Positions 1 to 63,779 of a stretch of DNA of 64,000 bases are shown here, in pieces; the stretch's first letter is position 1; every line of letters starts with the position of its first letter. Both the position numbers and the translations under genes were made by a program. This DNA is from Sphaerodactylus townsendi (Eukaryota). The stretch is taken from NCBI RefSeq assembly GCF_021028975.2, contig NC_059436.1, positions 58,900,001 to 58,964,000 of the forward strand, written 5' to 3'. The notes beneath the pieces were generated by a model that was not told the origin of the DNA, did no database searches, and was given only the letters and a program-made list of their open reading frames with translations.

Positions 1-1640
1 GGCGGCCCGGCTTGGGAGGGCTGGGGGGAGAGTGGCTGAGCAGGCGGCCCGATCTCGTCGTCCCCCCCCCCCCACACACACACACACCGCCCGGCCGCTC
101 CGGAGCAGGACTGTGGGGTGGTCCCGAAGCCCGGCTGCTCCACCGCCGCAGCCCAAAGCGGCACAGCCTGGCCGGCCCGCGGGAGCAGCAGCCGGCCTCC
201 TCGGCCCCAAAGGCGCCTCCCGGGCCAGAGGGCGCATGCGAGGGGACGGGACGGGAAGCCGCAATCCGGCTGCTCCTCACCACGCGGGGCTGGAGCGCTC
301 CGGGCAGAAGCCCGCCTGGGCAAGCTCGGTGCTTCTTCTGCCTGCGGGCCCGGAGCTCGGGCAGAAGCCCCCGGGCGCCCACCACAGACTTTGACCCCGT
401 CCTTGCAAAAGAAAAGAGAATCGCGTTAAGAGCCAAAGTCAGAGCCCCCTCCCTCCCTCCCCCGCGCGCAGAGACGGCTGATCCCTGAGCGGCCTGGCCA
501 GATATACTCTCTTTACCAGAATGAGTCTACTCCCACGCAACAAGGTGCACGTTTACTCTAAAGCAAGTCGTTGGCGCCTGTGTGCCTCCGAGGGCAGCAG
601 ACGGCCTTCCAGACCAAGCCCCGCTTGCATAGAAGCCGCGCTGTACCTTCAGCGGGTGCCAGCACGGTCAATGGTTTGGACTGAGCGGCCAGCAAACACC
701 CCTTGGCCCAGGGAGGGCATGGCCGAGCGGAGCCCCCCTCCTCCCCAAGGCCCGGCATCCCCCCCGCCTCTTGTGGGAAGCGGGGCTCACCCAGGGTGCG
801 GTCCACTGCGGCACTGCACTGGGGCGGGATCCGGTCTTTCAGAGAGACGGTGGGGCCGGCAGGGCAGGATTCTCTGGACCGCCCGACGGAACCGGAGCGG
901 GAGATGAGCCGCTGGCTTCCCTGGGGCTCCCTGAGTGGCTGGCTGGCGGGGGAAGGAAGAGTCCCGTCTCAGGGAAACTAGTACCGCGGGGGTATCTCTG
1001 TGGCGCCAGGCTGGTTGCTGCGGGCGGCTGCTGGGCAAGGCAGCGACGGAGACTGTGGGTGGGCGGGGGGGGGAGGGGCAGGCAGAGCCCAGGTACGCCT
1101 CTCTGCCGTGGCGGAGCAAGAGCCAGCGGCGGGGCCGGAGTGCGGAGGCAGCGCCGAATCCTGGCCGCGGCCCCCAACTCAAGACTGGCTGCTGGCTGAG
1201 CGACCCGTCCGCCTGGCGAAAGCTACGGAGATGGAAGAGGACGCCTCCTTGCCCCGCCCCTCCGCCTGCCCGCCTTTGCCAGGCTGGCCTGCCAGCCGGT
1301 CCCAGTCCACTCAAACCCTTCTTGCAGGTGGCAAACCAATCGGCTAATACAACAGCATATCGGGAGAGTAACCGCCCGTGTAACCGCGAGAAGTACACGC
1401 ATTTGGCACCATCAGCATATGATGTCCTCGACCGGCGGAAGAAAAGCAACAGAATACTGAGTGACCACTGCCAACCCCCCAAAGCCGAGGTCCTGGCGTC
1501 CGGCAGAGGCCCAGCAGCAGCCACACCGAGGGGCCCAGCCGTTCGGAGAACTGCGAGGGGGGCTGGCCAGAAAGCCGCCGCTGCCTGCCAAGTACCAGCC
1601 CACTAGTGGTCCTGAAGTCACCTCCCGGTGTGTTTTCAGG
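1..1640. promoter_or_regulatory. CpG island, likely promoter/regulatory region of a gene off the left edge (possibly LHX3 by synteny with QSOX2)
   Basis: Very high GC and CpG density, GC boxes, CCAAT near 1337; no TE signature; ORFs here are low-complexity. Confidence 0.6.
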
Positions 1641-8751: not shown

Positions 8752-8933
8752 ATGATTCTGGCTCTCAGGAAGTGTAGCCACACCCTCTGTGTCATGCTGC
8801 CCTTTGGCACAGGGTGCACTGTGCCCGGACCTTCCACCCACCCACCCACACACACACATTTTATTCTCACAAGCCAGTTTGAGCAAGGACAGCCAAACTG
8901 GTTTTCTTTCCAACCTTCATATATGCTCAGAAA

Positions 8934-14939: not shown

Positions 14940-17900
14940 TATCAGGAGGCCTGTTATTATGGGGATTTTGCTATTGCTGCTTTCTGTATGCTGGGGATGG
15001 AGGAATGGGTTAATTGCATTTCTAACTGACTTTCAACTGTCTTCTGTATGATGTTATACTGTACCAGGTGCTGCTCAAGGTCAGTGCCTGGCCGTCTCTA
15101 CCGTTATCTCTTTCACAGTTCCTTTTGGGTGCGCTTCCCCAGGATGGGGGGTGCAGTCTGCTTTAACTACTGGGTTTTGTGTGGGCAAACCTCAGTTCTG
15201 GCATGACCAGAGAAGATCCTCAATACTCAATAAACTACTGTTCTTACACATGAGTTTGTTTCAGTTTTTGGGATTCTGACATTATGCCAGAACTTCTCTT
15301 AGGTTGAATTCCATGCTGCCGTGCATTGCTGGAATTTCACCTTCTACTTTTGCAACTTTTATCAAAGACTTTTCTTGCCAGTATGATCTCTTCAGAGACC
15401 CAGCCAGGGGGTGCATCCGCGGCTGCAGACCATGGGTGCCCCATTCCTGAAGACTTAACAGGAACTTCGGATTCAGCCTCTGACCCAGCAGAGGGGCCTC
15501 GGATCCTGCTTGGAAGTGCAGCAGGCAGAGAAGCCCCTACCCCAGGTGGATTTTTGGACTCCATTCACCCGTTCATGACTGCCCCGCTAGATGGCTTGGA
15601 GGGAGTTACCGTGTGTCGTCGTCGGGGTCTGGACTATCGAGAATCTCAGCCTTTGGGTTTGGGCAGTGCGACGTGGGCTACAGCACCTTTGGCTGGAAAT
15701 GTGTAGTTGCCAATCCGTCCATCGGAAGGGGCTGATTAATCGGAAGCTGAAGCCTGGCGGATGCTCCAAGTGTTGGAGGAGGCCTGGGATTCAGAGCGTG
15801 AGGAGTACCACTGGGCCCTGCACCAGATGGAACGGGATATAGAGCACCTGCAAGCCACCCTTGCCCAGGCTCACCAAGTAGCCCCTGCTCCCGGAGCTGG
15901 AGTAGCCATAACGCCAGCTGCCCCAGCACCAGCTCAGCCTGCACCAGCACTGGCACCAGCTCTGCCTGTCCAAACGGGACCCACCCCAGCGCCAGTACCC
16001 GCTCAGCCTGCCCAGCCAGTTCCGGTTCCAGCTCCAGTTCCTGCTTGAGCACCGGTACCAGCCCAGCCTGTCCAACCAGGACCCGCCCCAGCACCAGTAC
16101 CCATTCAACCTGCTCAACTGGTGCTGGTACCGGCCCCAGCTCTGGCTCCAGGACCAGCTCCAGGTCCAGCTCAGCCTGTTTACCCCAGACCCACCCCGGC
16201 TCCGATTCCAGTACCAGGCCAGCTGCCTCTCCAGCCAGGCCCCCCTTGCTGCCAGCTGCACCTGCTCCATTACCGGTCCCGCCTCTGATGCCACTGTTTG
16301 TACCACCAGGATGGGGAGTTCCGGGTGGAGTGTTGCCAAACTTTGCACCCTATGGGGTAGCTCCCCCTCCGCTCATGCCCAGGATCCGGCTGACTACTCG
16401 CTTTGATGGGACTCAGGACTTGCTCCCGGCTTTCCTGGTTCAGGTCAATGCCCACATGTTGCAGTATGGGCGGCAGTACCTGAACAATTTTGAGCGTGTT
16501 TGTGAGGTAGGGTCAATGCTAGATGGCCCTGCAGCCAATTGGTACATGAACCTGTTTCAACGTCAAGCTGCAGAACTGCGCAACTTCCAGGATTTTATGA
16601 TGGCCCTACGCTGCTGCTTCGAGAGCCCATTTGTGGGCGAGCAAACAAAACAGGAACTCATGGAGATGCGATAGGGCAAAACCCCTTTTGCTGAGTTTGT
16701 TGAAAACTTCCGTACCGTGGCCAGTAAGATCCAGGATTGGGATGATCCTGTGAAAGTGTTCGTTTTCAAGAAAACCCTAAACCCGGACTTGTTAAACTGG
16801 GCTCTTGTTCAGGGCAGCCCGCAGACCCTGAAGGAGTGGATTGTACTCGCGGGTACTGCAGACACTAGAATGTGTGAAGCAGCCACGTTGGGGGTTCAAG
16901 TCGGATGATCCCCACTTGCCCAGCTGCGTCGGGCGGTGCCCCAAGTTCCAAGCCTACACGCCCTGCTCCTTTGAAGTGCCAGATCTCGCCGGAAGAAAAC
17001 GCTCGCCGCCATATGAATCTCTGCCTGTATTGTGGCGGGGAGGGCCATATTGCTGCGTTTTGTCCCACCAAGCGCACCCCCACTCCAGCTACTTCCACCC
17101 TGGCAGCCAAGCCGGCCAAGCCGACCAAACTGCCGCCAAGAGGGGGTGCCCGTGCAGCAGCTCCCCACGCCACTGGGGGGAACAGCCGATTCCTTGGGAG
17201 CCTCCCAAGCCAGAGCGGGTGAGTGAAGCCATAATTCTGCCCCTTGTTCTGACCAACAGGCCCGGATGCCCAAAGCTAGTGGTCCAAGCCCTTGTAGATG
17301 CCCGAAGCTAGTGGTCCAAGCCCTTGCTGCTCTCACTGTTTAATACATCCCCGTTTGGTGGAAGCACTTGGGCTGCAGCCCATTTTGTTGAAGGAGACTA
17401 TCCGGTTTGACCAAATGAATGGCAGTCCAATGGGCGGCGGTTCCATCACATCTCGCACCCCAAAAATCCTGGCCAATTGTGAGGGGCATTGGGAATGCCG
17501 TAGCTTCATAATTGCCCCCATCTCTCAGTACCCCGTGATATTGGGACTATCTTGGCTTGTGGATCATGACCCATTAGTGAAATGGTCTCAACGTGTTTTG
17601 ACTTTTACCAATCCTCCTTGTGGAGACCACATGAGCCCTGATCCACCCGAACACTTGCTACATCCGCCTGAGGGACTCGCTCGCGCTCTGTCCCAACCTT
17701 CAGTTAACCCTGAAATTCCCTCACCGTACCGGGACTTATGGCAAGTGTTCGAAGAGACTGAGTGTGATTCCTTGCCGCCCCATCGTGATACTGACTGTAA
17801 AATCAAACTGGTCCCTGGAGCTACACTACCCAAGGGACAGCTATATTCCATGAGTCCTGCTGAGGATACCGAGTTGCGGGCGTTCCTGGATAAAAATTTG

Positions 17901-20900
17901 GTGCGCGGGTTCATTCGGAGGGCGCGCAGCGGTTTTGCAGCCCCGGTTCTGTTTGTGAAGAAGAAAGATGGTTCCCTGTGGCTGTGTACTGACTACAGGG
18001 GTTTGAACGCTGTTTCGGCCTCTAACAAATACCCGTTACTCCTGATCAAGGATTTACTTGCAAATCTTGGCTCGGGACATATTTTTACCAAGTTGGACTT
18101 ACATGAAGCCTATTACTGGATGCGTATGGCTGAGGGCCATGAACATTTGACTGCTTTTAATACTCGCCATGGACAGTATGAATACTTAATCATGCCTTTT
18201 GGGCTTTCTGGAGCCCCCGCCGTGTTTCAGAGTCTGATCAATGGGATTTTGGATGACGTCGTTCAAAGGACTTGTTGTTTATTTGGATGATGTTTTGATT
18301 TACTCCCATGACGAAGAATCACATATTGCTTTGGTCCACGAAGTGTTATCCCAGTTACTGGCGAATTCCCTGTTTGTGAAACTCTCTAAGTGCAAATTTC
18401 ACAAGCCTCAGTTGGATTTTTTGGGCTACCGCATTTCTGCTGCTGGTTTGGAAATGGAGCCCACTAAGGTTGCTGATGTGCAGGCATGGCCCCCTCCTCA
18501 GACTCCTAAGCAACTCCAGTCCTTTCTGGGCTTTGCCAATTTTTACTGTGACTTTATCCCTCACTTTTCCTCCTTGGCTCTCCCTTTGACTGATCTTTTG
18601 CGTACCAAGGAGAAAGGTCCTGCAGCTTCCTATCCTGGTGCTCCTTTGGTTTGGAGCTCTGCTTGCCAGTCTGTGTTTGATTCCCTGAAAGCTGCCTTCA
18701 CTTCTGAACCAGTTCTCGCCCAACCTGACCCTTCCTTGCCGTTCGTGGTACACGTTGATGCTTCAGACAAGGCTTTGGGTGCTGCCCTACTTCAGCAGGG
18801 TTCGGATGGTCGGCTCCACCCCTGGGCGTATCTCTCCTGCAAGTTTTCAGGTGCTGAACTTAATTGGACTGTTGGTGATAAAGAAACCTGTGCTATCAAG
18901 GTCGCTCTTACTGTGTGGAGGCATTTCTTAGAGGGAGCGGAGCACCCCTTTGAGGTCTGGACTGATCATAAAAACCTGGCTGGACTCTGCTCCCCAGGCC
19001 GGCTTTCCGTTAAAAAAATCCACTGGGGGGACTTTTTCACGCTCTTTCGTTTTACAGTTCATTTTTTCCAGGGCAAAACCAACTGTTTGGCAGATGCCCA
19101 GCCCTGCTTGCCAGAGGGGGGGAGCGCAAAGTGGATCCTTTGCTTTCCCGCACTATTCTCTCCCCCACCCACTTGGGCTTGGCTATTACCTGATCGCAGG
19201 CGAAGGCGGAGCCCCCGCCATCTGTATCTCCTCCTGGACCCCTTCTCTCCACCTTCTTGAAGGCGGGAAGTCCCCGGTGCCTCTTGCAGAGGGAGGCGAT
19301 GGATTAGTATTACGTGACGGCATTTGGTGTCATGGCTCGCTGTTGTATGTCCCGCCCCATCTGCGGTCTCAAATCCTCCACCAGGGGCATGATTCCAAGT
19401 CGGCTGGTCACTTTGGCTTTGTAAAAACTTTGCATTTGCTTCGCAGACAATTTTGGTGGAAGACCATGCATAAGGACATTGACGCTTATATCAAGGGCTG
19501 CCCTATCTGTGCTATGGCAAAAACCATTCCAGGCAAGCCCCAAGGATTATTGCAGGACATTGAGCTGCCCAGTGGGCCCTGGCAGGTGATCTCCATGGAT
19601 TTTATTACGGACTTGCCTTTGAGTCATGGCAAAATGGTGATCTGGACTGTAGTTGATTTGTTCTCTAAGCAGGCTCATATTGTACCTCCATCCCCACTGC
19701 TCAGAAACTGGCTGAACTGTTTATGCTGCATATTTACAGGTTGCATTCTGCCCCCAGGAAAATAATCACGGAAAGTGCGCCTAAAAGTGAGTGTAAGGAG
19801 ATAACAGAAGATGGGCAAGTAACGGCCTTGACACCACCTGGTATTACTCCACATTCTACAGCAACTGAGAAAAGACAGTTAGAAATGCAGTTAACCCCTA
19901 CCAACCTCCTCCCAGTGCAATGAAACAGCAGCATAAGCAAAGTCCCAAACCAGGCCTCCTGACACAGGGGTTTGCAATTTGTCTCCCGCTTTTGGAGGGC
20001 CTTTATGAAGTTGTTGGGCATTGAACAGGGGGTGTCCTTGGCCTACCACCCCAATCTGATGGGGAGTCTGAAAGGTCCAATCAGACTTTGGAACAGTACC
20101 TGAGATGTTATGTGAACTATCAGCAAGATAACTGGGTTGACCTGTTGCCCTACATGGAATATGCTTACAATAACTCAGTTCATAGTGGTACAGGCAAGAC
20201 TCCTTTTGAAGTGGTCCATGGTCATTCGGTTCCCCCTCTGCCCATGCTCCAGTCAGGAGACGCCCCTGGACCCGAGGTTAAGGAATGGATGCAATCCATT
20301 GCTGATCAGTGGCCCCCTATCTTGAAAGCACTTCAGGAAGCTAGAGACTCATACAAGTGGCAAGCCAGTAAATGCAGGCGTGACTTCCCTCTAGTGGTCT
20401 ACCTCTCCACCAAGAATCTCCGGGACATACATCAGCCCTCGAAACTGAGTGTGAAGTATATTGGGCCCTTTAAGATTGTCAGAGTGATAAATAAAGTGAC
20501 TGCTGAACTGGAATTGCCTAATGCTTTGCATAAAATACACCCTGTGTTTCATTGCAACCTTCTGAAGAAGACATGTTCCCCGGATGTCTGGCATTGAGAG
20601 AAGAAGACTCCTCCTCCGGTCCGGATTGATGGGACTAAACATTATGAACTTTCTGACATTCTTGATTCTCGCATCTATCGAAACCGCTTGCAGTATTCGG
20701 TCTCTTGGAAAGGTTGTTTACCTGGGCAGAATCAGTGGATATTTGCCAAGGATGTTAAAGCCCCCCGCCTCGTTAAAGCTTTTCATCAAAACTGTCCAAG
20801 CAAGCCGGGGGGAGGGCCCTAGAGGGAGTGGAATGTCAGGACGCCTGTTATGGGGATTTTGCTATTGCTGCTTTCTGTATGCTGGGGGTGGAGGAATGGG

Positions 20901-21171
20901 TTAATTGCATTTTAACTGACTTTCAACTGTCTTCTGTATGATGTTATACTGTACCAGGTGCTGCTCAAGGTCAGTGCCTGGCCGTCTCTACTGTTATCTC
21001 TTTCACAGTTCCTTTTGGGTGCGCTTTCCCAGGATGGGGGGTGCAGTCCACTTTAACTACTGGGTTTTGTGTGGGCAAACCTCAGTTCTGGCATGACCAG
21101 CGAAGAACCTCAATACTCAATAAACTACTGTTCTTATACATGAGTTTGTTTCAGTTTTGGGGATTTTGACA
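14940..21171 (+). mobile_element. Gypsy A: full-length Tf1/sushi-like chromovirus, decayed
   Basis: LTRs 14940-15281 and 20834-21171; PPT AGAGGGAGTGGAA; near-TSD CTCAA/CTCAT; gag-PR-RT-RH-IN-chromodomain. Confidence 0.95.
15382..20822 (+). pseudogene. Gypsy A gag-pol
   Basis: Pro/Ala-rich gag (15890-16290), RFDGTQ capsid, CLYCGGEGHIAAFC, YLDD, WTDHKNL, ISMDFITDLP, HPVFH, chromodomain YELSDILDSR...WKG...QW. Confidence 0.92.
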
Positions 21172-23050: not shown

Positions 23051-23072
23051 GTCAAGAAACATCGAGAGGGGG

Positions 23073-23547: not shown

Positions 23548-23587
23548 AGAAATAGGTACCTTGAGATGAGTTCAGGAGCCAGCGAAT

Positions 23588-23729
23588 GTGGTGCTGGCAC
23601 TCCAGATCCCATGGACTACTCATACATCAAAGCCTTTCTTCCAGCATGGGCCTGGGCTGGCCATGCTGGCAGGGGCTGATGGGAATTGTAGTCTATAACA
23701 TCTGGAGTGCCAAAGGTTCGCCACCACTA
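23588..23729. mobile_element. Second, more diverged copy of the palindromic hAT-type MITE
   Basis: Right arm nearly identical to 22098-22166. Confidence 0.8.
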
Positions 23730-28993: not shown

Positions 28994-29649
28994 TTCAAGC
29001 CCTAGTTGAATAGGCTGCTCTCATTGTTTAATACACCCCCGTTTGGTGGAAGCACTTGGTCTGCAGCCTGTTTTATTAACAGAGACTATTCGGTTTGACC
29101 AAATGGACGGCAGTCCTCTGGGCGACGCACCCGTTACTTCTTGCACCCCAAAGATTCTGGCCAATTGTGAGGGGCATTGGGAATGCTGTAGCTTTATACA
29201 ATAGACCTTTATTGGCATAAGATACAAAAGCGTGATTATAGACCATCACTAAATTTAAAAGAGTTGTACATGGCGTCTATGAGTAGTTTTACATTCTAAA
29301 ATCACACTTCATTTATAAAAATAACGTAGATTAAAAAATTTTGTCCATTCCATTGTACACGGGATTGTGAACAGGTATAGTAAAACTACACTTAAAAGAC
29401 AGGATTAAGATATTCGTTATTCATAGCCTATTTACTAAAAAGGTATAGCCTTCCCCAAGATCTATAAATTGTATATACTAATTAATACTATAAATTAATT
29501 AAATTTCCATAAAATGCAATAAATAACAGTGAGCTCCTTATAAACACCTTCTAAAATACCCCAGGAGTATCAGAGGTGTGGAGTATTTCACATTTAAATA
29601 GTTTTGTACTTGCCTATTTTACATACCTCTTAGGGACATGACTTGCAGC

Positions 29650-32600: not shown

Positions 32601-33211
32601 AAATCAAAATATAAGCTTAATAAAGTAAGTTGGTCACCTGCTGCATTTCGAATTTGGTCTTTGCATCTTCTTCTCAATGCAAAGTGCCATGGGAGAGATT
32701 CTATATCTAAATCCATGTATTGCTGTAAATATGCTTCATTATCACCAAGTCTGGCATTCCAGTCTCCTGCTAATATTAAAGATGCCTGAGGATGTTGAGA
32801 TAATATATCCTGTAAATATTCTGTGAATTTGTCCCAATGACACTTAATTTCATCTTTCGTTGATCCAGGTGGGATATATATATTAATTAATATCCATGGG
32901 GGGGACTTATCCCTCAGTATAAGCACGTGAGCAATTTGGTCACAGTGTGGACCAGTATTGTAGGATAATCGTCTCTCAGCTTTGAGTAATATTGCCAAAC
33001 CTGCCTGGTATCTTCCTTTTCCACTTATTCTGTATGCTGGCAGTGGGATTGTGATGTAATTTCTGAGGTGGGGAGTACCCGGGTCCCAGGTTTCTTGGAG
33101 ACAGATAATGTCATATCTTGATAAAAAACTAATTACATCTGGGTTGTAGGATTTACTGCGCCATCCTGCAACATTCCAGGAAAGTATTTTTAAAGTTGAT
33201 GGAGAACTTAG
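29650..33211 (-). pseudogene. LINE ORF2: APE endonuclease open 33211-32141; RT region frameshifted (possibly sequence errors)
   Basis: Manual translation from 33211: LSSPSTLKILSWNVAGWRSK...CLQETW..., continuing into ORF 32141-32998. Confidence 0.85.
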
Positions 33212-36866: not shown

Positions 36867-39800
36867 TGTAAGGAATTCCAAAGAGCAGAAATAAAAGGCT
36901 TTTGGATATAAGACCGTTTATTCAGACATCTTAGAAAGCACACACACACGACATGACAGGAATGAGGCCTCCCACCCAAACTACAGGTTATAACTCAATC
37001 CCTTCCCCCTCCCTGGGCCATCCAGGCCCATCTCATGGGAGCGGAGATGCCTATCTTGCAGTCAGCAAAGATAAGCCGTCCACCAAAGGTTAAGTTTACC
37101 CGTCACGATTCTGTAGCCCGCTCGCCCGGCTGGGAGGCGATTCTGTCAAGGAGCCAGCTGGCTCTGGGGAGAGAACCAGAGCAGACCTATGCCATCCTTA
37201 CACTCTGCTTCCCCCAAGGAAAACCTCCCCGAGCTTGTCAGGAAGAGGCTTTTGTGAAGAAGAAACAGCAATGTGAGGGAGGGGGCATCAATATTTTCTG
37301 TATATGCCATTGATTATGTGCCAGGAGGGATATGCCACAACCCATGAAACCAGAAGTACTGTAGGATGATTAAGTGGAAAAAGCGGGAGTCCAGAATAGC
37401 ACTCTATTTCAAAGTGCTTGTGGCCATCAATTGCACTTAACTGGCGGGGGGTGGCTCCGGAGAGTGCGTTGCCAGGAGCATCCTGGTGGAATTTTCATGG
37501 AACCTCCTTGAGCAGAAGCTGGAATGGAAGACAGGGTGAATGTTGTCTGCTGCAACATGATTTAGAGCAGTTCCCAAAACGAGCGGTAACATCATTGATC
37601 ACCTTTAGCCATGTATCCGAAAAGGGCCCGCAAATTTCTTGCCAAGGATTTTGAATGGCACATTGCCTGCCGCGTCTCTAGGGTTTTTAGTGGAACAAAT
37701 AGACCCGCCCCAACTGCACTTATAAGGGAAGTCCGGCGGTACGCTTGTCCGCTTCCTGAACCTTTTTGTGATTGCTTGGGCCTGCTGTAAAAGGTGGAGC
37801 TGCACTGTTTTCCAACCCCTCGGCTAGCGAAGAAATCCATTTGTTTACACGAGATTCTGGAGGCTGCGAATTTACCTCTGCAGGAAGCTGGGAACAACTA
37901 TGGTGGAAGAATATGACCGACCAAGGAAACAATCTCGAACGGCAGGTCTTTTCTAGCGTGCTACTATGAATGGCATTTGTTATCACGCATACTCTGCAAA
38001 AGAAGTGCATCGCACCAATTGTCCCTGATGATAGTATAACAAGCGTAAATACTGTTCTAGCGATTCTGTTCGTCTGCGTTCTGAGTTGGCCCGTCACTTT
38101 GAAGGCGATGGTAGAAGGCGACGACGCTGGGGTGGTTCCCAACAGCTCCAGGAGAAGGCCTTCCAAAACTCAGATATGAATTAGAGGACCGCGGTTCGGA
38201 TACAACCATATAGGAGAGGAGTGTAGGCGATATAGATATGTTGGAATAAACAAGCAGAATAGGATTTAGGTTGCCGACGGCGGATGGTGGTGCAAGGGAA
38301 TAAAATGCGCCTGTTTAGAAAAAGATCCGCCACCTACCCATAAAACAGTGTTCCCGTGGCTTTCCGACAAATCGGTTATAAAATCCATGGAAAATGACTT
38401 GCCAGGGTCCCGAGATGCAACAGGGAGGGTTTGGCAATAGCCCATCGCGGCTTTCGGTATCGACTTGGCTTCCGCACAGGCGGAACACCTGCTGATATCG
38501 TGTTCAATGTCTTTGCGCATGGAAGCGCTCACCAGAACTATCGGCCGGGCCAGATTTGCAACGTGGTTCAAAACCGAAGTGCCCAGCAGGCGGGCATCAT
38601 GACATGTTGAGAACCCACCCGCCTCCGGCGAGGAGGGAGGGACGTAGAGGGGGCCATTACACTTGCCTCCCCATTTCCAAACACCATCTCCTCTAAACCC
38701 AGTTGTGAATCTCCTTCCTCGCCACGACCAGTTACATGCGGAATTCCCGCCTCCTTGAATCCCTGGAGGAGAGGGGAGGCGATGTTAGGGATGGTGTAGA
38801 CCGGAGAGGAAGGAGCTGCCGTAATTTGTGATGGGGTGACAGCTAACTGAGCTGGGAGGGAGAAAGCACGGTGCGCGGGATATCTATCTGTAGTAATGTT
38901 TCCCCCCCCTCCCCGGGAAGGCGAGGACAAGCCCGCATCAAAATACCGGTTTGTTGCTTTACCAGGAAAGAAATGGACGGTGAAAGAGAACCTGGAGAAA
39001 AAAAAATCATTAGCGCAATTGTTTAGCAGACATTTTTTTGAGTGGTGTGGACAGGGCAGCCAGATTTTTATGATCTGATAAACCTGGAAGGGGTGTTTGG
39101 CTCCTTCTAGCCAGAGGTAATAAACACTCAATACCGGCTTTGATAGCCGCGGTCTCCTTATCTCCCAATGAATTACAGCGGAGAAATACTGGCTGGGTTT
39201 AAAAACGTGCAGGACTGGCTTCACCTCCTAGAGGACACCATCCATTTGGAGTGAGAGGAATGGGTTTCACCAAAGGGACTTCGGTCTAAAACCAAGTTAA
39301 GTCGACCACTTGTGGCCTCATGAGATGCAATGGGAACAGCCCAAGTCCACAGGTCACGGAAAGCCAAGAATAGCGCGATATGTTGCTTGGGTTGGCTAAG
39401 TGTAAGTTCAAAATGGTAATGGGAGCACTGCAGCTTCACTGCTACGCATCTGGAGTGGGGTTAATGTCCCTCGGGTGCTGCTGACAGGCAGAAGCTACAT
39501 CTCCGTCCTCGAAATCTTCCTCGATAGCAGCTTTAAAACTGATCCCTGGAAGTGCGTGGACCCATGATTTACGATGGAGGCTTGGCTGAAACACCAAAGG
39601 CGTGTAGAAGAATTTGGGGTTTTGCTTCAACCCCGGACAGTCGGCAAAGGTGCCCAGGCCCCCATTGCGCAGTAAGAAGAGCCGATAATCGCCAAAGCGG
39701 CGGCGACGTTCAGGCGTGGATTTCAGCTGCCAAGCGGCAGGAGTTGGATTTGCGAGTAATTGGTGCTGGTGTGCATTGATGGCGGGTTTTAGGCGCTAGG

Positions 39801-42148
39801 CGGCCATCTCTTGCAGCAGGCAGCGCGCAAGACGGGCAGCTGACTTGTGATCCCAGGATTCGATCCATTAGGCTATTGTCCGCGGGATCCGGATGAGGAT
39901 AACCGTTTCGAAGCAGTTTGAATGTCCATGCCTTGAAAAGTACTCACATTTCATGCGTTCCGGCCAATCTGGAGGGAGTTTACTGGCCGCTACACGCAGA
40001 TTTCCGAACGTATTCAGCCCAGCGAAAGAAGCGGTTACCTTGTTGGAACGTGGTTTTATATGCGTATTGCAGCGTTTTTTCTGCATCGAGATGCTTACCG
40101 GAAACAGAAGGCGTAGCATATATGGACGGAACCCCGCCACTGTGCGGTGTCGTCAGCCTATGACTGGCAATTGCGGTAGAGAGTAGCGAACCGATTCAGC
40201 CACTACCTGCCATCCAGTACCTTTGATCAATGTGCTACGGACTTTCTCGCGTTCTCAGAACGATACATAGGTCATCATACTCTTCGCGCATACTGGGCAT
40301 CGAGGTTGCTTCTAGAATGAAGTAAGTAGGGGAGTTTGATGCACGTCCCGTCAAAACGAAGCTGGGATGGAAGCTGGTCTGTAAAATCCTCTCTCAACAG
40401 TTCGAGATTATGCGTGTTGAGGTTGTTACTGTAGGTGGCCTGGTTGTTGCAAGGGAGTAGAAAATTATGGCGGAGCTGGAAGGAACCGGGAAAGAACTGA
40501 AGGCGCCCTATTACAGGTTGGGGGCGGCTGAAATCGGAACCTCGAGAAAGTACCGTGCCTCCGGCAGGAGGGGAACTGAAGGCGTCCGGGGAGAAGGTAT
40601 GGCCTCTATCACGGAGCGCTTGCCAGTGTAGCCCGCAACTGTTTTCGCCGAAATCTGCCGATTCTAGGAATCGACCGAAGCTCTTTCTTTCGCTAGCGTC
40701 AATTCAAAAAAAAGGTCGTCCCGCAGATGCGCATGCACAGAGCCGCACTACGATCCGATTTAGCTTTCGTTCATCGCGCATTTGTATGGCTGTAGTCAGT
40801 TCAATTCTGCGTTTGGATGGCCTTGATGCCTTCGCGCTGGCGTTGTAAATCCATTTTTGATTGATCCAGTACTTTATCGCGAACTGTCAGATTCTTTGCT
40901 TGGAACTGTCGGCATAGCGCTTCTCTTTTCAGCGATCCAACTCTATTTTGCGGATTTCTGCGCGTTACTTCCTCACCGGTCCCGTTGCAGATTTTCCGTA
41001 GCTCTCCTCTTCCCAGAGTTCGCGTTAACGCTCCAGAGCAAGTTTGGCTTCCACGCCCAGCAGGCTACTTCATACGTCCCAACTTTTCCTTCGAGAGCAT
41101 TGGGAGCGAGATCGTCAGGATCCGGGATTAAGTTCCACCTCCAGAGCGGACTTCTTTCGATTCCTCCGACCGGCTCCACGGAGCTCTTCCATCCGTTCAC
41201 CTTGCTCCCGAGCTCTGGAGCGCAGTTTTAGTAATAAGAACCCTCTACCCGATCATCGAATCCAACTTCGCATCGCTATAGTTCCAGCCTCAACACGTAG
41301 TGCTTGGGGGTACGCGCCCCGGTGCACTGTGCCACTGCTGCTCCTTAGGAATATCATCAAAAGTACTTGTCTAGGAATCTTTCCATGGATTCCCTGGAAT
41401 TGTCCTTTATGGATGGTTGTCCAGTCCCAGTTCCCTCCAGGGACTGGCAGCTGCATTTAAGGAGTTTATAATCCACTCGTTGTCGGAGGGAAATGAACGG
41501 TCCAAGCAAGGCGCCGATCCATGGATATTGCACCAAAGCGTTTCATGCATCTCCCACGTGAAATCGGACCCACCTGATATTCATCCCAATCCTGAAACAA
41601 AGACGAACTTAATACTGTCTCTAGGTCTGGAGAGAGTCACCAGAGAAATCGGGCCATCTCCATACCTAGATCCCTCCCGGAATCTGGAAGGGAAGGCTCG
41701 AAGCCCTCTATGGGGGAGACTTCATAAATTGCCTTCCACATGGTCAAGCGTACTCCAATCTCTGCATGTCGAAACACCAGAGATCCGCTTCGATGTAACA
41801 AGCGTAGGTTAAAAGTGAGTTACCTGTCAAGCAATGTAAGGAATTTCCAAAGAGAGCAGAAATAAAAGGCTTTTGGATATAAGACCGTTTATTCAGACAT
41901 CTTAGAAGCACACACACACGACATGACAGGAATGAGGCCTCCCGCCCAAACTACAGGTTATAACTCAATCCCTTCCCCCTCCCTGGGCCATCCAGGCCCA
42001 TCTCATGGGAACGGAATGCTCATCTTGGTCAGCAAGATAAGCCGTCCACCAAGGTTGTTGCCGCCGATTCTGGCCCGCCGCCCGGCTGGAGGCATTCCGT
42101 CAAGGCCAGCTGGCTGGGAGAGAACCAGGCAGACCTGCCATCCTTACA
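36867..42148 (-). mobile_element. Gypsy G: chromovirus-like, internally deleted (no RT)
   Basis: LTRs 36867-37202 and 41835-42148; TSD GTTGG; PPT GGGGGAAGCAGAG; SMDFITDL and LEGAKHPFQV remnants. Confidence 0.9.
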
Positions 42149-43822
42149 GTTGGATTTGCGTGACGGAGTCTGGTGCCGTGGCTTGTTGCTGTATGTGCCG
42201 CCCCATTTGCGTTCTCAAATCCTCCGCCAGGGGCACGATTCCAAGTCAGCAGGTCATTTTGGTTTTGTGAAAACTTTGCATTTGCTCCGCAGACAGTTTT
42301 GGTGGAAGACTATGCGTAAATATATTGAGGCTTATATTAAAGGTTGTTCTGTCTTGCTATGGCAAAAACAATTCAAAGAAAGCCCCATGGATTGTTACAG
42401 GACATTACTTTGCCCAATGAGCCCTGGCAGGTGATTTCAATGGACTTTATTACGGACTTGCCTTTGAGTCATGGCGAAACAGTGATATGGACTGTGGTTG
42501 ATCTGTTCTCTAAGCAGGCTCATTTTATTCTGTGTGCTTCCATCCCCACTGCCCAGAAACTGGCTGAACTGTTTATGCTGCATATTTACAGATTGCATTC
42601 TGCCCCCAGGAAAATAATCATGGACAGGGGTTCACAATTTCTCTCCCACTTTTGGAGGGCGTTCATGAAGTTGTTGGGCATTGAACAAGGGGTGTCTTTC
42701 GCGTTTCACCCCCAATCTGATGGAGAGAGTGAGAGATTCCAACAGACTTTGGAACAGTATCTAAGGTGTTATGTGAATTATCAGCAGGATGACTGGGTTG
42801 ACCTTTTGCCCTATGCGGAATATGCCTATAACTCTGCATAGTAGCATAGGCAAGACTCCTTTTGAGGTGGTTCATGGCTGTTTGGCACCCCCTTTGCCCA
42901 TGCTTCAGTTGGGGGATGCTCCTGGCTCGTAACTTAATGATTGGATGCAGTCTGTTGCTGATCAATGACCCCAGATTGTGCAAGCATTTCAGGAAGCTAG
43001 AGACTCATAAAAGCGACAGGCTGATAATCACAGACGTGACTTCCCTCTAGTGGTATGCCCTCTCCAACCTTCGGTGCACACATAGGCCCTCAAAATTAAG
43101 TGCCAAGTATATAGGGCCCTTTAAGATTATCAGGGTGATCAATAAGGTGACTTCTGAACTGGAACTACCTAATGCGTTGCATAAAATACACCGTGTTTCA
43201 TTGCAGCTTACTGAAGAAGACGAGTTCACCCGATGTCTGGCATCCTGAGATGACGGTTCCTCCTCCGGTTCTGATTAATGGAACTAAACATTATGAACTT
43301 TCTGACATTCTTGATTCTCGCATCTATCGGAACCGCTTGCAGTATTTGGTCTCTTGGAAAGGTTGTTTACCTGGGCAGAATCAATGGATTTTTGCTGAAA
43401 ATGTTAAAGCCTCCCACCTCGTTAAAGCTTTTCATCGATGCTGCCCAAGCAAGCAGGGGGGAGGGCCCTAGAGGGAGCAGAATGTCAGGAGGCCTGTTGT
43501 TTAAGGGATTTGCTTATGCTGATTTCTGGATGCTGTGGGTGGAAGAATGGGTTAATTGCATTTCTAACTGACTTTTCTCTGTCTTCTGTATGATGTTATA
43601 CTGTACCAGGTGCTGCCCAAGGTCAGTGCCTGGCTGTCTTCACTGTTATCTTTTGCAGTCCTTTTGGGCATGCATTCCCACAATGGGGGGAGTGCACACT
43701 GCTTTAACCATAGGGGTTTACGCAGGCAGACCTCAGTTCTGGCATTGACCAGAGAAGATCTCATTTACCAATAAACTACTGTTCTTTTACATGAGTTTGT
43801 TGCAGTTTTTGGGATTCTGACA

Positions 43823-45336
43823 GCAGTTTTGGTGGTGTTCCATGCACCGGGACATTGAACTTTATATAAAAGGGTGTCCTGTCTGTGCCATGGCCAAGAG
43901 GGTTCCAGGAAAGCCTTCAGGGTTGTTGCACCCACTGGAATCTCCCGATGGCCCATGGAAAGTAATTTCAATGGATTTCATTACTGATCTGCCACTTAGC
44001 AATGGCAAAGCAGTTATCTGGATGGTGGTGGACTTATTTTCTAAACAGGGGCATTTCATTCCTTGTGCCTCCATCCCAACTGCTCAGAAATTGGCTCAGT
44101 TGTTTGTCCAACATATCTACCAGTTGCATTCAACCCCTGATAAGATCCTATCCGACAGCGAAAGCCAATTTATCTCTAAGTTTTGGAAAGCCTTTTTGGG
44201 ACTATTGAGAATTGATCAAGGACTCTCCTCTCCATACTATCCCCAATCAGATGGAGAATCGGAGAGATCCAATGAAACATTGGTGTTTGCGGTGCTATGT
44301 GGATTATCAACAGAACAATTGGGTGGAGTTACTGCCGTTTGCTGAATATGCCTATAATAATGCGGTTCACAGTAGTATTGGCACACAGTAGTACTGGCAA
44401 AACCCCTTTTGAAGTTTGGTCGCTCTGCAAAACCCCTTCCTTTCCTGTCCCATGGTGCTGCGGTTCCTCCTGAGTTCAAAGAATGGATCCAGGCTTTGGC
44501 AGTCGGTTGGCCATCCATTCAGAAAGCCTTGCAAAAGCATCAGGAATTGTGTAGCCTGAAAGCTTGGCAGGCTGATAGAAGCATGAAAAGGCGACGCCCC
44601 CCTAGCAGTTGGCGACATGGTATATCTCTCTACAAAGAACCTGCATGATATTCATAAGCCTACCAAGCTGGGATTTCGATACATTGGTCCTTATAGAGTG
44701 ATTAAAGTGATTAATGGAGTCACTGCTGAACTTGACTTGCCAAAGGCTTTGCAGAAGATTCATCCTGTGTTTCATTGCAGCTTGCTGAAGAATGGCATCC
44801 AGAGTCTACTTTAACTCCTCCTGTGCTGATTGATGGGAGGAGCACCATGAAATCTCTGCTATTTGGGACTCTTGCATCATAACCACTTGCAATATTTGGT
44901 ATCCTGGAAAGGCTGGCTACCTGGACATGACCAGTGGGTCTATGAAGAAAATATCAAGGATCCTAGACTCATTTGGGAGTTTCATCACAACTGTCCAAGC
45001 AAACCATGGGGAGGGCCCTAGAGGGAGTGGAAATGTCAGGATGCTTTAGGGGTGGTGGGGCTACTTAGCACTTTGGGCTTATTGTGGATTGGGAATATTG
45101 GTCTGTATTTCATTTCTTGCCGCTTACCACCAGGTCAGCTCCAACAAACTTTTGGTCTTATCAAACTGTCTGCATATTTCTCTGTCTGTTCACATGGAGG
45201 GGGGTGTCTCCTCACTTCTTATTACTGATGTTTGTGTGTGGAAAAGTCAATTCTGGCTTTTCCAAGCTGCTCTCTGGTTGCCTGAATAAACCTCTGTTCT
45301 CTACAAGATGTTGTTTCTTTCACTGGAGATTTGACA
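43823..45336 (+). mobile_element. Gypsy C: integrase, chromodomain and 3' LTR (45034-45336); same family as Gypsy D
   Basis: ISMDFITDLP, HPVFH, PPT AGAGGGAGTGGAAA; LTR homologous to 57694-58007. Confidence 0.9.
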
Positions 45337-55453: not shown

Positions 55454-56325
55454 AGGTGCTGTGTGGTTTCCGGGGTGTATGGCCATGTTCTAGCAGCATT
55501 CTCTTCTGACTTTTCGCCTGCATCTGTGGCTGGCATTTTCAGAGGATCTGACAGTAGGAAAGGAAAGCAAGTAGAGTATATATACCTGTGAGTAACAATT
55601 AAGATAGCAAGGTTAGTAGGTGAGGGCATCTGAATAGAAGTAGCCTGGCAACTGAGTAATAATGAAGTATGTAGCATGTGAGTAACAATGAAGATAGCAA
55701 GGCCAATAGATGAGGGCATATGAATAGAAGTAGCCTGGCCTTTGTTCCCTTTGATTGTATATTGTCTATAGTCATTCTGTGTTTGCGTGGAACTGATTAG
55801 TCACTGTCTTGACTCTAGTGTTTTTCAACACTGGTGAAGCCATTGAAATCCACAAGTACATGGACAATTTCAACAGAAAGAAAGAAACCATGAAAATGAA
55901 CAGAACTTGGCTGCCAGTGTTGAAAAACACTAGAGTCAAGACAGTGACTAATCAGCTTCACGCAAACACAGAATGACTATAGACAATATACAATCAAAGG
56001 GAACAAAGGCCAGGCTACTTCTATTCATATGCCCTCACTTATTGGCCTTGCTATCTTCATTGTTACTCAAATGCTACATACATCATTATTAGTTGCCAGG
56101 CTACTTCTATTCAGATGCCCTCACCTAGTAACCTTGCTATCTTAATTGTTACTCACAGGTATATATACTCCACTTGCTTTCTTTTCCTACTATCAGATCC
56201 TCTGAAGATGCCAGCCACAGATGCAGGCAAAATGTCAGGAGAGAATGCTGCTAGAACACGGCCATACACCCCAGAAACCACACAGCACCTCAGTGATTCC
56301 GGCCATGAAAGCCTTCAATAATACG
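55454..56325 (+). mobile_element. Penelope-like element 3' end with inverted duplication
   Basis: EAIEIHK..NFNRK (GIY-YIG C-terminus); arms 55454-55834 and 55915-56290 inverted; 13-bp TSD TTGCTTGACATAG. Confidence 0.88.
56198..56240 (+). ncRNA. Degenerate minimal hammerhead ribozyme (inverted twin at 55505-55546, minus strand)
   Basis: TCCT-CTGAAGA-TGCC...GGC-AAAATGTC-AGGA; GAAA core mutated. Confidence 0.6.
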
Positions 56326-57693: not shown

Positions 57694-60600
57694 TGTCAGA
57701 TCCTCAATGATTGAAACACCACCTTGTTGAGAACAGAGGTTTATTCATACATCCAGAGGACAGCTTGGAAAAGCCAGAATTGACTTTTCCGTGTGCAAAC
57801 AGCAGTAATATGATATGAGGAACCTCCCCCCCATGAGAATAGACAATGAAGTATGTAGGCAGTTTGATAAGAGCAAAAGTCAGTTGGAGATGACCTTGGC
57901 CAGCACCTGGTGGTGAGAGCAGCTAGAAACAATACACAGAGTAACATTCCCATCCCCCCAAAGCCCAAAGTACTAAGCAGCCCCAGCACCCACTAGGCAT
58001 CCTGACATTCCACTCCCTCTGGGGCCCCCCTCCCAGTTTGCTTGGACAGAAACAATGAAAGTCTTGAATGAGCCGTGGAGCCTTGATGTTTTCAACATTG
58101 ACCCATTCATCATGTCCAGGTAGCCAGCTTTTCCAGGACACCAAATATTGCAAGCGGTTACGATAGATGTAAGAGTTGTGAATAGCTGAGATCTCATGAT
58201 GCTCCTCCCCATCAATCAGAACAGGAAGAGTTGTAACAGATTCTGGATGCCATTGGTCCAGTGAGGGTGCCTTCTTCAGCAAGCTGCAATGAAACACAGG
58301 GTGGATTTTATGCAAAGCCTTAGGCAAATCTAGTTCAGCAGTAACTCCATTGATTATTTTAAGAACTTTATAAGGTCCAATGTATCTAAGCTGCAGTTTG
58401 GTTGGCTTGTGGATATCACAGATGTTCTTTGTAGACAGGTACACCGTATCTCCAATCACCAGGGGAGCTCACGCCTATGTTTGTCAGCCTGCCGTTTGTA
58501 AGCAATTTGAATTTTTTGTAAAGCTTTTTGGATGGACGGCCAACTGTCTGCCAAAGCCCGAATACATTCTTTGAGCTCAGGAGGGAAGGCCGCTCCATGG
58601 GACAAGAAAGGAAGATGTTTCACGGAACGTCCAGACACCACTTCAAAAGGGGTCTTACCAGTGCTACTGTGAACTGCATAATTATAGGCATATTCAGCAA
58701 ATGGCAGTAACTCCACCGAATTATTCTGTTGGTAATTAACACAGCAACGCAAAAATTGTGCCAATGTCTGATTAGATTGTTCAGATTCGCCATCTGATTG
58801 AGGATGATATGGAGAGGAGAGGGCCTGGTCAATATTCAATAGTTGCAAAAAGGTCCTCCAGAACTTGGAAATGAATTGGCTCCCCTTGTCGGAGACGATC
58901 CTATCAGGGGCGGAATGCAGACGGTAAATATGCTGAACGAACAACTTAGCCAGTTTCTGAGCATTTGGGATGGAATCACAGGGAATGAAATGTGCCTGCT
59001 TGGCGAATAAGTCCACTACCACCCAAATAACCATTTTGCCATTACTAAGAGGCAGATCAGTAATAAAGTCCATTGCAATCACTTTCCAAGGACCATCGGG
59101 AGACTCTAACGGTTGCAGCAAACCCGGGGTTTTACCTGGGACTCCTTTTGCCATAGTGCAAACAGGACAGCCTTTGATATAGAGGTCAATGTCTCAGCAC
59201 ATAGACCACCACCAAACTGCTGGCAAAGAGATGCAGCGTTTTCACAAAACCAAAATGACCCGCTGATTTAGAGTCATAACTCATACAGATGATCTCTGCT
59301 CGTAAAGAAGGCAGGACATATAGCAAATCACCCTTACACCATAGTCCATCCCGTAAAAGCAAAGAACTGTCTCCTTCCTCATCCGGGACAACAGAATGGC
59401 CAGCCTCCAAAAACGTAGACAGAAGGGAAGAGGGAGGTTGCAGAGCAGTCAGTACCTGGGGCTTGGTTTGGGAACGAGTCACAGCCCTGCCCAGGTGGGC
59501 AGGTGAAAGGGTCATCCGAGGAACTGGTACAGTGACATCAGAGTCCACCCCCTCAGGCAAGCGGGAAAGAGCATCAGCCAATTTATTGGATTAGCTCAGG
59601 AAAAATGCACCGTAAAGCAGAAGCGATTGAAAAAATCTGCCCAATGGATTTGCTTGGCTGAGAGCCAACCCGGAGTGCAATGGGAGGCGAGATTCTTATG
59701 ATCGGTCCAGACCTGAAAAGGATGCTCCGCCCCTCCAAAAAATGGCGCCAGACCGAAAGAGCGGTTTTGATAGCACAAGTTTCTTTATCGCCAACAGTCC
59801 AATTTAATTCCGGGCCAGTAAACTTTTTGGACAACTAAGCACAAGGGTAGTGGCGGCCGTCAGAGCCTTGCTGCAGTAGGGCAGCTCCAAGAGCCTGGTT
59901 CAAAGCATCAACATGCACCACAAATGGCTGGGAGGGATCAGGGTGCCGTAGGATGCGTTTGGTTGTAAAAGCAGCTTTGAGAGCATCAATAGCCTGCTGG
60001 CATGTGGGAGACCAAGTCAAAGGCGTGTTGGGATGGGCAGCAGCCGAACCTTTACCCTTGCTCCACAATAGATCGGTGATTGGCAGAGCCAGTTCAGCAA
60101 AATTGGGAATAAAGTCATGATAAAAATTAGCAAAGCCCAAAAAGGATTGGAGCTGTTTCCAGGTACAGGGAGAGGGCCAGTTCACCACACCAGTCACCTT
60201 AGCGGGGTCCATTTCCAAACCCTCAACAGAGACCCAATAGCCCAGAAAATCCAGATGTGTCTGGTGAAGGTGATCATGTGGATCGGTGGTCTCAGGAGGT
60301 AATTCAGTCAGGTTACTTGATCAAGTTTGCTCACCTACCCCCACAACGCTTCCGGGCATTCCCCATCAACGCCAACCTGAACAAAGCACAAAGAACTCAA
60401 TGAGCTATTCTGCATCTACTCAGCATAAGGGCGATAGAGCCAGTGCCAGAATCGGAGAGATCCTTGGGGGTCTTCTCTCACTTTTTTACGGTACCAAAGC
60501 GCAGCGGGGATTGGAGGGCAATACTCAACCTGAAGTTCATCAATCGCCATCTAAAACTTCATCGTTTCAGGATGGAAACACTTTGCTTCATCATAGAGAA

Positions 60601-63600
60601 TCTCCGTCCAGGCGACTATACGACCTCCCTAGACCTGACCGAGGCATACCTCCATATACCGATACATCCATCCCACAGGAAGTACCTCCGGTTCGCCATA
60701 GGCCATCAACAGTTCCAATTCAGAACTCCAGTAATTAAACTCTAGAACACCCTGGGGGCTCCGGATAACCCGAATGGCATAACCAAATATTCATACTGGC
60801 CACAGTGGGTGTTAAAAGCAGTTAAATGCTCATAGCCTTCAGCTATACGGACCCAGTAATATGTTTCCCTTAAGTCAAGGTTGGTGAAAATCAGTCCCTT
60901 GCCAAGGTTGGCCAGTAACTCCTTGATGAGTGGCAAAGGATATTTATTGGTAGTGGGAACAGCATTCAATTTACGATAATCAGTACAAAGTCTCAAAGAC
61001 CCATCTTTTTTCTTGACAAACAGAATGGGTGCTGCAAAGCTACTGCAAGTTTTCTGAATGAAATTGCGGGCAAGGTTTTTACTTTAAAAATCCTGAAGAG
61101 CAGCATCCTCTGTAGGGCTCAATGGATACAAGCGTCCCTTGGGCAATTTACATCTGGGGACCAATTCAATTTTGCAGTCGGTATCTCTATGAGGAGGTAG
61201 AGCATCACATTCCGTTTCCTCAAACACCTGCCACAAATCTTGGTAGGGCGGGGGAGGCTCGATTTCCATAACTAAGTGGACCAGAAAAGTCTGGAGGGTG
61301 TAATGACATATGGCCACCACAGGGGCGTTTCGTAAAAGTTACAACATGGCCCACCCACTGAATTTGTGGATTGTGGTCTATGAGCCAAGATATGCCAAGT
61401 ATCACAGGATAATCAGAAATATTTGACAAAGTTTTGTGTAATGGGATTGATTGTAATTCCAAGCTATGAACAACGCTGGGGTGCATTAAACAGTGGCAGC
61501 AGTCCACCAGAGCGTGAATCTTTACTTTAGGCTCTTGTGGACCCTTGGAGATGAGCAAAGGGAGGATGATAGGTTCACTCACCCTTTCCGAGATATCCTT
61601 GGTTGATTCTTGAGTGGCTTTTGCATAACTTTTGTAATTCTCATCAGATGAATTGTAATTCAGCTCTATCGGTAGAGCGAGGCGCGCTGTTCCTTTCTTC
61701 AGATTGGGTCCCTTGGCCGATGCTTCGCTCTTGCCAGGCGCAGATGGCTTCACTGGCTGCTTTTCTGGGCAAGCAGCAGCTAGGTGACCGATCCCTCCAC
61801 AATACAGGCACAATCCAAGATGACGACGATGCACATTCTCCAATTCGTGAGTTTCAGGCGAGGAGTGGATTCCCTGGGGGTACCGACCCTGGGAGAACCC
61901 GCTGGCTTACCAGAATGGGCTTTGGCTTCATTCATTCGTGCATCTGACATGCCAGCCAGCATGATCCATTCCATCAAAGTAACCGGACTGTCCGATTGCA
62001 AAGCCCATTTCAACAGTCCAGGGTGCAGGGCCTGCTTGAAGGCATACATTTTGACAGGATCATCCCAATCAGGAATTTTACTGGCCACAGTGCGAAAGTT
62101 TTCCACAAACTCCATGAAAGGAGTATTCCCTGACGTATCTGCATCAGCTCTTTCCTCCCCTACAAAGGGACTCTCAAAACGTCGGTGGAGAGCCATCATG
62201 AAGTCTGGAAAATTACGTAATTCACCAGCCCCGTGCTGGAACAGGCTCACATACCATTCAGCTACGGCCTCATCCAAGGCAGATCCCACTTCATAAACCT
62301 GCTCAGTATCATGTTGATACTGCTGGTCGTATTGTTGCTTGTGGACACTGACTTGCACCAAAAAGGCTGGGAGTTGCTTCTGGGAGCCATCGTAGCGCAC
62401 ATTCAACCTTGCCCAAGGTGCTATCGGTTGTGAATACCCAAATGGAGGTGCCATCGGATACCCGAAGGAAGGCTGGAGTGGGTACAGGTGTGGCAGTGAT
62501 GGCTGGAACTGAGGGGGTACAGGTGGAACAGGAATCAAGGGCGGTGCCAGCAATGGCTATACAGGTGGGGTAGGTATCACGGGCAGAGCCAGCTGCCTCA
62601 GCACCCCCGCTGGCTGAGCCTCGGCATCCCCGCTGGCTGAGCAGGAATCAGAGGTGGTGAAGGTACCTGTGGAGCAGGTGTCCCAGGCGGAGCAGGTTGT
62701 CCCTCTCCAACCCCTTGCTGTCCATCAACTTCTTGCCCCGGCACCCTCACTGGCATGCCACCCCTACCTTGCACCTCATTGACTGGAGGCTGAGGCTGCC
62801 CAGGGGGATTTTGTTGCATTTGCGCCAGCCGGGCTTCGTCCTGCACTTTATGTAGTTCAGCACGGGTCTGCCCTATGGTCATATGCATCGCATCCATATC
62901 ACGATGCATCTGGTTCAAGGCATGTTCGTACTGCATCCCGCTTCTAGCTCCTCCCCAAGCTGCTTCTTTAAGTAGCACGGAACAGTCAGCCTACATCTCT
63001 GCTTCTTCCCATCTGGTAGGGACTTGCAGTGGGATCCCCTCACGACAGTGGATCCCCCAGCAAGGGAGGCTGTAACCCATGTTCAGACCTCGTCTAAATC
63101 CAGCAAAGAATCAGTAGGTACTGTAGCAGTCTCTTTCCGACGGACCGTAACTCCCACTTGGAGCAGAGCAGACAGGAAACGTGAAACTCCCGCAGAAGCA
63201 CCTGCCACATGCTGCAAAGGGGATGAAGTGGCTTGTCCAACCCTAGGTAGGGGTCACAGGTGGCGAGTCCTGACTTATCCAACCGGAGGGGAGTCGACCC
63301 TGTAGAAGCAGCTGTAGTAGAATCCAAAGTTGTTCTGGACTCCCCCTCCTCGTTAAGGCCAGACACAGTCTCCACGGCGTGAGGATCAAAAGGGGGCCCA
63401 GACAGTCCTTGAAGAAAAGCAACTAAATATCTAACATGTGCAACTTCAGCATTAGACTTAAGCATGAAGTGCCACACGATGAGAATTCTGGCTTAATGTC
63501 CAATCCTCAATGATTGAAACAACATCTTTTAGAGATCAGAGGTTTATTCATACATCCAGAGGACAGCTTGGAAAAGCCACAATTGACTTTTCCACGAGCA

Positions 63601-63779
63601 AACAGCAGTAATATGATGTGAGGAACCTCCCCCATGAGAACAGACAATGAAGTATGTAGGCAGTTTGAGAAGAGCAAAAGTCTGTTGGAGCTGCTAGAAA
63701 TGATACACAGAGTAACATTCCCATCCCCCCAAAAGCCCAAAGTGCTAAGCAGCCCCAGCACCCACTAGGCATCCTGACA
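57694..63779 (-). mobile_element. Gypsy D: full-length chromovirus in the last QSOX2 intron, same orientation as the gene, decayed
   Basis: LTRs 63497-63779 and 57694-58007; PPT; near-TSD ATATT/CTATT; gag, CLYCGGIGHLAAAC, RT, RH, IN, chromodomain. Confidence 0.95.
60271..60724 (+). mobile_element. DIRS-type RT fragment
   Basis: FSHFFTVPKRSGDWRAILNLKFIN...FRMETL...LDLTEAYLHIPIHPSHRKYLRF. Confidence 0.85.

Follow-up and report, generated by a model that had tools for sequence, protein, structure and literature searches.

The locus considered here, a window of 64,000 nucleotides from Sphaerodactylus townsendi (contig NC_059436.1, positions 58,900,001 to 58,964,000), raises the question of how the Gypsy-type retrotransposons nested within it prime their reverse transcription and why their primer-binding site (PBS) appears to change in step with a stretch of their own long terminal repeat (LTR). 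The answer favoured herein, to which we assign a probability of roughly 0.85, is that the PBS is the 11-nt complement of the element's own LTR, that this LTR stretch is likely the start of the transcript and likely serves as a primer in the manner of Tf1, and that the PBS is probably copied anew in each cycle.

Such an arrangement is the published self-priming of the Tf1/sushi group and is not new. Self-priming is described as a common feature of that group in fungi and vertebrates and is referred, for the vertebrate members, to predictions from sequence made since 2001 (PMC6317226, PMC4600332, bioRxiv 10.1101/2022.12.06.519325), and the supplements of PMC6317226 hold predicted self-primers of plant elements; with vertebrate self-priming in print for so long, the core finding is therefore a confirmation. 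In Tf1, the RNA's initial 11 bases pair with the PBS and cleavage by RNase H falls between bases 11 and 12 (PMC7175516), and in about half of the cDNA the 3' end is a single-stranded PBS (PMC11042837). The elements described here share with Tf1 and Tf2 of Schizosaccharomyces pombe the 11-nt complement of the predicted transcript start, the PBS placed just after the 5' LTR, an LTR ending in CA, a chromodomain integrase and a Tf2-1-like SH3 domain, whereas they differ in their vertebrate host, in the presence of at least 19 primer spellings within one genome and in a duplex 3' of the PBS that is unsupported here, the mechanism having been demonstrated for Tf1 only. When the pair is broken in Tf1, cDNA synthesis is reported to be lost, and restoring the pair is reported to rescue it.

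Self-comparison together with Pfam scans of 27 ORF pieces resolved the window into nested, broken LTR retrotransposons, which are, to judge by their domains, chromodomain-bearing Gypsy elements (Table 1). Elements A and D carry matches to gag, reverse transcriptase (RT) or RNase H, integrase and a Tf2-1-like SH3 domain in gypsy order; the chromodomain (PF00385) scores above the cut-off in element D at 57926-58468, and none was seen among the scanned ORF pieces of element A. The nearest solved RT is that of Ty3. The best protein relatives of the D integrase are Gypsy proteins of Anolis and Crotalus, and in a 51-row tree with a midpoint root, which includes no named Tf1 or Sushi-ichi reference, it groups with these squamate rows at an SH-aLRT of 99, with amphibian and fungal rows also on its side and plant rows apart (95). 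The LTR pair of D differs by 18 substitutions and 4 indels and its flanks are alike at four of five bases; the 5-base flanks of element G are identical at both ends of the element. No tRNA genes were found in the 64-kb window.

Table 1. Features of the Gypsy-type elements in the window (types, distinct primer/PBS pairs; in TC/A the slash precedes the first base of the primer)
Feature	Positions	Strand	Remarks
Element D 5' LTR	63497..63779	-	Ends CA, then TT; by self-comparison
D predicted self-primer, first 11 nt of R	63574..63584	-	One mismatch here; at initiator-like TC/A; putative start site
D AT-rich TATA-like box	63609..63615	-	About 30 nt upstream of primer; same position in 18/19 types
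D AATAAA polyadenylation signal, in R	63543..63548	-	
D primer-binding site	63484..63494	-	2 nt past LTR; without TGG start
D internal region, broken gag-pol	58008..63496	-	Pfam: gag, RNase H, integrase zinc finger and core, Tf2-1-like SH3, chromodomain
D polypurine tract	58008..58019	-	
Element D 3' LTR	57694..58007	-	Exact primer 11-mer at 57781-57771
Family C 3' LTR of 5'-truncated, D-related piece	45034..45336	+	Exact 11-mer 45249-45259
Element A 5' LTR	14940..15281	+	Primer 11-mer 15194-15204
Element A PBS	15284..15294	+	Complementary 11/11
Element A 3' LTR	20834..21171	+	Primer 11-mer at 21084
3' LTR of truncated A-related element	43483..43822	+	A-type 11-mer 43735-43745
Element G 5' LTR	41835..42148	-	Primer 11-mer 41933-41923
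Element G PBS region	41822..41832	-	Deviant in window copy
Element G 3' LTR	36867..37202	-	

The strings and coordinates on which the original prediction was built are all correct: the minus-strand PBS of D (63494-63484) has its exact complement at 57771-57781 in the 3' LTR of D and at 45249-45259 in the family C 3' LTR, a single mismatch is seen in the 5' LTR of D at 63574-63584, and between families A and D two positions, 2 and 10, are changed in both partners. The attribution of this PBS to C and D jointly stood in so far as other copies of the C subfamily share the 11-mer, but the family C piece of the window lacks a PBS, so that element D alone was its source. Likewise, a spacing of 85-95 nt from the LTR end holds for A, C and D (88 nt) but not for G (97 nt; 99 nt in the window copy), the range being 80-101 nt in 32 of the 33 elements of the genome-wide set described below. 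The pair proposed for family G, matching at 8/9, was misread because the window copy is deviant; the true register spans 11 nt, and among 29 other copies, taken from the best 40 matches, 24 are complementary at 11/11 and five at 10/11. The terminal primer/PBS pair is broken in the family G copies L067, L070, L074, L078 and L090, one variant being common to four of them.

As for the cause of the deviation, the two LTRs of the window G copy (36867-42148) differ by 6 substitutions and 19 indels, and its comparison with L063 gives 3 substitutions and 18 indels in 430 nt; with indels three times as numerous as substitutions between its LTRs, a local sequence error is suggested. Contigs of three runs gave almost no cover at 41805-41825, with the flanks covered, and since contigs show presence rather than absence, this gap is no proof of an assembly error. 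In family A, 16 of 29 copies are perfectly complementary and the other 13 have a single mismatch that is confined to one partner, the PBS in 10 copies and the LTR in 3.

An independent set was obtained from a profile search with the gag-associated PF16297, which gave 150 scored places. Among the 100 regions examined, self-alignment yielded an LTR pair in 40 and none in 60; 33 elements whose LTR ended at CA/TT were kept and seven with other boundaries were dropped, so that the set was defined by gag and LTR pair only, and the 11 bases after CA-TT were tested. Against the 5' LTR of the same element, the PBS was perfectly complementary in 23 of the 33, within one mismatch in 29 and within two in 32, L182 being the one element with no LTR match to its PBS. 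Control 11-mers from the 3' flank gave 0/33 within one mismatch, and shuffled LTRs, a comparison that the original prediction had proposed and that came out in its favour, gave 1/990 perfect and 6/990 within one. The complementarity is far beyond chance. Moreover, a scan of CATT sites in the collected DNA, in which overlapping loci are counted repeatedly, returned 129 perfect matches at 15,247 sites versus one with the reversed 11-mer, and filtering by distance and a poly(A)-like signal left 142 sites with 19 distinct perfect primer/PBS pairs, referred to as types. Inverted 11-mer matches after CATT, at 70-114 nt, also occur in L149, L165, L178, L188, L206, L211 and L214, which failed the LTR filter and are probably inverted-repeat elements of another kind.

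When the primer of one type is set against the PBS of another, 1-8 mismatches appear (median 5). An alignment of 23 representatives, of which 19 are perfect and 4 carry a single mismatch or wobble and all of which were chosen for complementarity, pairs in 252 of 253 cells, with both sides changing in 9 of the 11 pairs. On the same chosen rows, the covariation score of 0.826 versus 0.228 in shuffles was equalled by none of 500 shuffles, but two of the five covariation measures failed to beat the shuffles (53/500 and 56/500). A tree was built from the unaltered RT/RNase H DNA of 34 of the 71 candidate copies (identity 54-99%, median 63%), again a set chosen for complementarity, after a first protein tree had been dropped for its false match L233 and long-branch rows. 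On it the primer changes 41 times and the PBS 44 times, and no fewer than 37 of the 41 primer changes match a PBS change on the same branch, compared with a coincidence in 100 of 272 for off-register columns on the same tree. Conservation of pairing rather than of sequence, as claimed at the outset, is thus supported by the 19 types, the double-sided changes and their coincidence along the tree. Covariation is accordingly present, but to call it compensatory overstates the case, as a PBS copied from the primer would need one mutation only; for a plus-strand PBS so copied, a signal of the R-scape type cannot separate selection from templating.

Evidence that bears on templating comes from run-ons, that is, junctions at which the PBS continues into the complement of the U3 bases directly upstream of the primer. 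They were sought by exact patterns in four families, so that all counts are lower bounds, and exact junctions of LTR end and PBS were present 33 times in family A, 137 times in family G and 19 times in C/D; two of the C/D junctions (L251 and L255) were discarded as chance pattern matches outside LTRs, leaving 17. Run-ons of at least 6 nt occur in 3 of 33 junctions of family A (L242, 37 nt; L245, 19 nt; L244, 6 nt) and in 4 of 137 of family G, three of them independent (L246, 7 nt; L247/L248, 9 nt, one duplicated event; L249, 221 nt). Four of the 17 C/D junctions run on, namely L265 (at least 33 nt) and L256, L260 and L264, which share one 8-nt run-on, and in a fourth family L196 has a 9-nt run-on that matches the U3 variant of its own subfamily. 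Altogether, about nine independent run-ons of 6-221 nt start exactly at the PBS end in four families, which suggests that the PBS is copied from its partner. The 3-nt run-ons of L241 and L243 were left uncounted, that of L243 being explained by a small deletion.

Two cases deserve separate description. L249 has the U5 end, TT and PBS, after which comes the complement of U3 in its entirety, ending 2 nt past the LTR start; this end coincides with the expected plus-strand start (chance 1 in 16), and L249 is, as its junctions read, a complete fold-back product. L256, L260 and L264 lie on three chromosomes and are 90-93% alike, the run-on being 7/8 in L260 and offset by one base in L264, and a normal leader follows it; a run-on common to three copies and followed by a normal leader has therefore been inherited, that is, fixed in the subfamily, whose complement would measure 19 bp instead of 11 bp. 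These copies are the closest relatives of the family C LTR in the window. In addition, L241, L244 and L247/L248 are internally deleted, with run-ons that jump to pol or to the integrase end (5-nt microhomology in L247), and are likely aberrant plus-strand transfers. L242, L245 and L246, in which LTR+PBS ends are joined to host DNA with no processed CA, resemble the integrase-independent insertion of Tf1 by way of single-stranded PBS ends (PMC11042837), with the difference that the tail here passes the PBS into the U3 complement.

Shorter extensions were also met. The base after the PBS is G rather than C in 4 of 29 family A copies, which could represent templating by 1 nt or shared descent. 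Among 15 family H matches with G after the PBS no countable run-on was found, 14 extending by 1-2 nt and most sharing a subfamily leader. L272 of family H was rejected as a run-on, being an ordinary LTR on the other strand with two bases changed after the primer; these two bases are those of the primer/minus-strand junction, by chance or in a recombinant.

On balance, and with less assurance than for self-priming itself, we lean to the reading that in self-primed Gypsy elements of vertebrates each cycle writes the PBS afresh from the primer of the element itself, that primer and PBS drift as a unit and that the run-ons are fossils of the process, one of them heritable. Its chief competitor accepts self-priming and attributes the covariation, in the usual way, to independent mutation pairs fixed by selection, with the run-ons as unrelated accidents of DNA repair. 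The mismatch at the terminal pair that persists in 5 of 29 family G copies, where templated correction is evidently incomplete, and the rarity of run-ons (4/137 in G) accord with such an account; we nevertheless hold it unlikely, given the near-complete coincidence of changes over only 11 nt and the exact start of about nine independent run-ons at the PBS end in four families. Primer-templated synthesis of the PBS is, moreover, established in retroviruses, where in HIV/SIV the primer is the template of the plus-strand PBS, whose heteroduplex with the minus-strand PBS segregates (PMC4549124), and a PBS copy forms the end of Tf1 cDNA (PMC11042837). By the templating reading, the present elements would share with HIV/SIV a plus-strand PBS copied from the primer and differ in the template, which is a fixed host tRNA there, so that the PBS stays constant, and would be the element's own R here, so that primer and PBS can drift together.

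The position of the LTR partner bears on its role. All 19 primers start with A, which stands in 18 of 19 in the context YC/A, taken here to be initiator-like; the 7-mer richest in AT is found at -29 to -33 in 18 of the 19 types, and AATAAA at +33 to +42 in 18 of 19, the latter partly imposed by the poly(A)-like filter. An AT-rich box and an AATAAA near the LTR's 3' end also mark the Sushi LTR model (PMC3601003), and the vertebrate sushi elements are likewise chromovirus Gypsy elements predicted to self-prime; for Tf2, starts are treated in PMC5341516. Complementarity stops at the primer A: a G as the next PBS base would extend it, and 18 of 19 types have C there. As the LTR partner begins with an initiator-like A, and an AT-rich box precedes that A by about 30 nt, it is probably the first 11 nt of the transcript.

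In predicted minimum-energy folds, all 11 pairs form in 18 of the 19 types, and the folds of elements A and D have z of -3.69 and -2.05. The RNA of Tf1 adopts a "pretzel" of three duplexes. Of these, an inner stem that joins the LTR to the bases immediately upstream of the PBS is favoured in the present predictions with a combined p of 4e-6 across families that are related and not independent, 4 of 19 singly, and ranks first against the R of other families in 2 of 19 types. For a duplex of the LTR with the bases that follow directly downstream of the PBS, 1 of 19 types reached p<=0.05 against shuffles (combined p 0.52) in a test that short duplexes would escape, and a narrower window gave 3 of 19 (combined p 0.15); such a post-PBS "pretzel" duplex is not supported by the modelling and is plausible in family A only.

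The predicted hairpin encloses AATAAA, which could be masked in the 5' LTR, and this lends some colour to the view that the paired stretches serve as an RNA hairpin with a structural or regulatory task in packaging, dimerisation or poly(A) masking while a host tRNA or another RNA primes at the same site. We consider that view very improbable: no PBS among the 19 types starts with TGG, the signature treated in PMC5006619, 17 of 19 lack TGG within the first 6 nt (it stands at +4 in the other two), the nineteen spellings follow the LTR and not a fixed host RNA, and the length of 11 and the geometry are those of Tf1 (PMC7175516). A shade more improbable still is that the complementarity plays no part in priming and was left behind by fold-back of the DNA or by gene conversion between PBS and R; the run-ons do show copying between PBS and R at the DNA level, but a by-product would not, in nearly every family, break off after exactly 11 nt and at an initiator A, and the elements have no alternative primer site. 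Chance matching or an assembly artefact, to which the error-laden look of the window G copy might point, has a negligible probability and is refuted by the CATT-site scan and the 33-element test, with controls at 0/33 and 6/990 and 19 types spread over many chromosomes.

Returning to self-priming with a templated PBS, the cycle may be pictured as follows. The PBS and the LTR 11-mer are complementary, in fixed geometry, and covary. Transcription, to go by the motifs, would begin at the A of the 11-mer, and in the predicted fold of the RNA the 11-bp helix closes a long hairpin of R and U5. By analogy with Tf1, RNase H would cut after base 11, and RT would extend the 11-mer across TT into U5. The retained primer would then be copied during plus-strand synthesis, so that a new plus-strand PBS follows the LTR; a change in R+1..11 would thereby reach the PBS without a second mutation, and selection for priming would remove mismatches left uncorrected. 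Occasionally the plus strand would pass the 11-mer into the U3 complement seen in the junction sequences, either because its 3' end folds back on its own R or because a primer with an upstream start is copied. Both routes would yield run-ons, and each requires pairing in the course of reverse transcription.

If this is correct, the junctions would constitute genomic evidence that the LTR start is physically used in vertebrate reverse transcription, and templating would be a general reason why perfect covariation of primer and site does not measure selection. No earlier report of squamate self-priming, of within-genome covariation, of a templated PBS in self-primed elements or of fold-back or run-on junctions was found, in a search that left most subscription journals, the primary Tf1 papers included, outside its reach. 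What the present analysis adds to the published arrangement is a comparative set of 19 spellings, of exactly 11 nt and in a fixed promoter context, which predicts the start site of every family, together with run-on junctions, in which the pairing has left its trace in the DNA and which favour compensation by templating over compensation in two steps.

Several further features of the window may be recorded. Within the integrase region of element A, 19779-19964 holds a piece of U3 from a related LTR family in inverted orientation (88.6% to L158), which is absent from the related piece at 42156-43822. A LINE with an endonuclease ORF occupies 29041-35102 on the minus strand, inserted in a Gypsy pol fragment and flanked by a 158-bp duplication, and short inverted and direct repeats of 60-135 nt lie at 22026-23726 and 55587-56172. 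Finally, a repeat of about 460 nt is present in three copies, 76-81% alike, at 6903-9587 and 23073-23543, near a Pol_BBD match at 10842-11651; these copies are perhaps the LTRs of a copia-type element.
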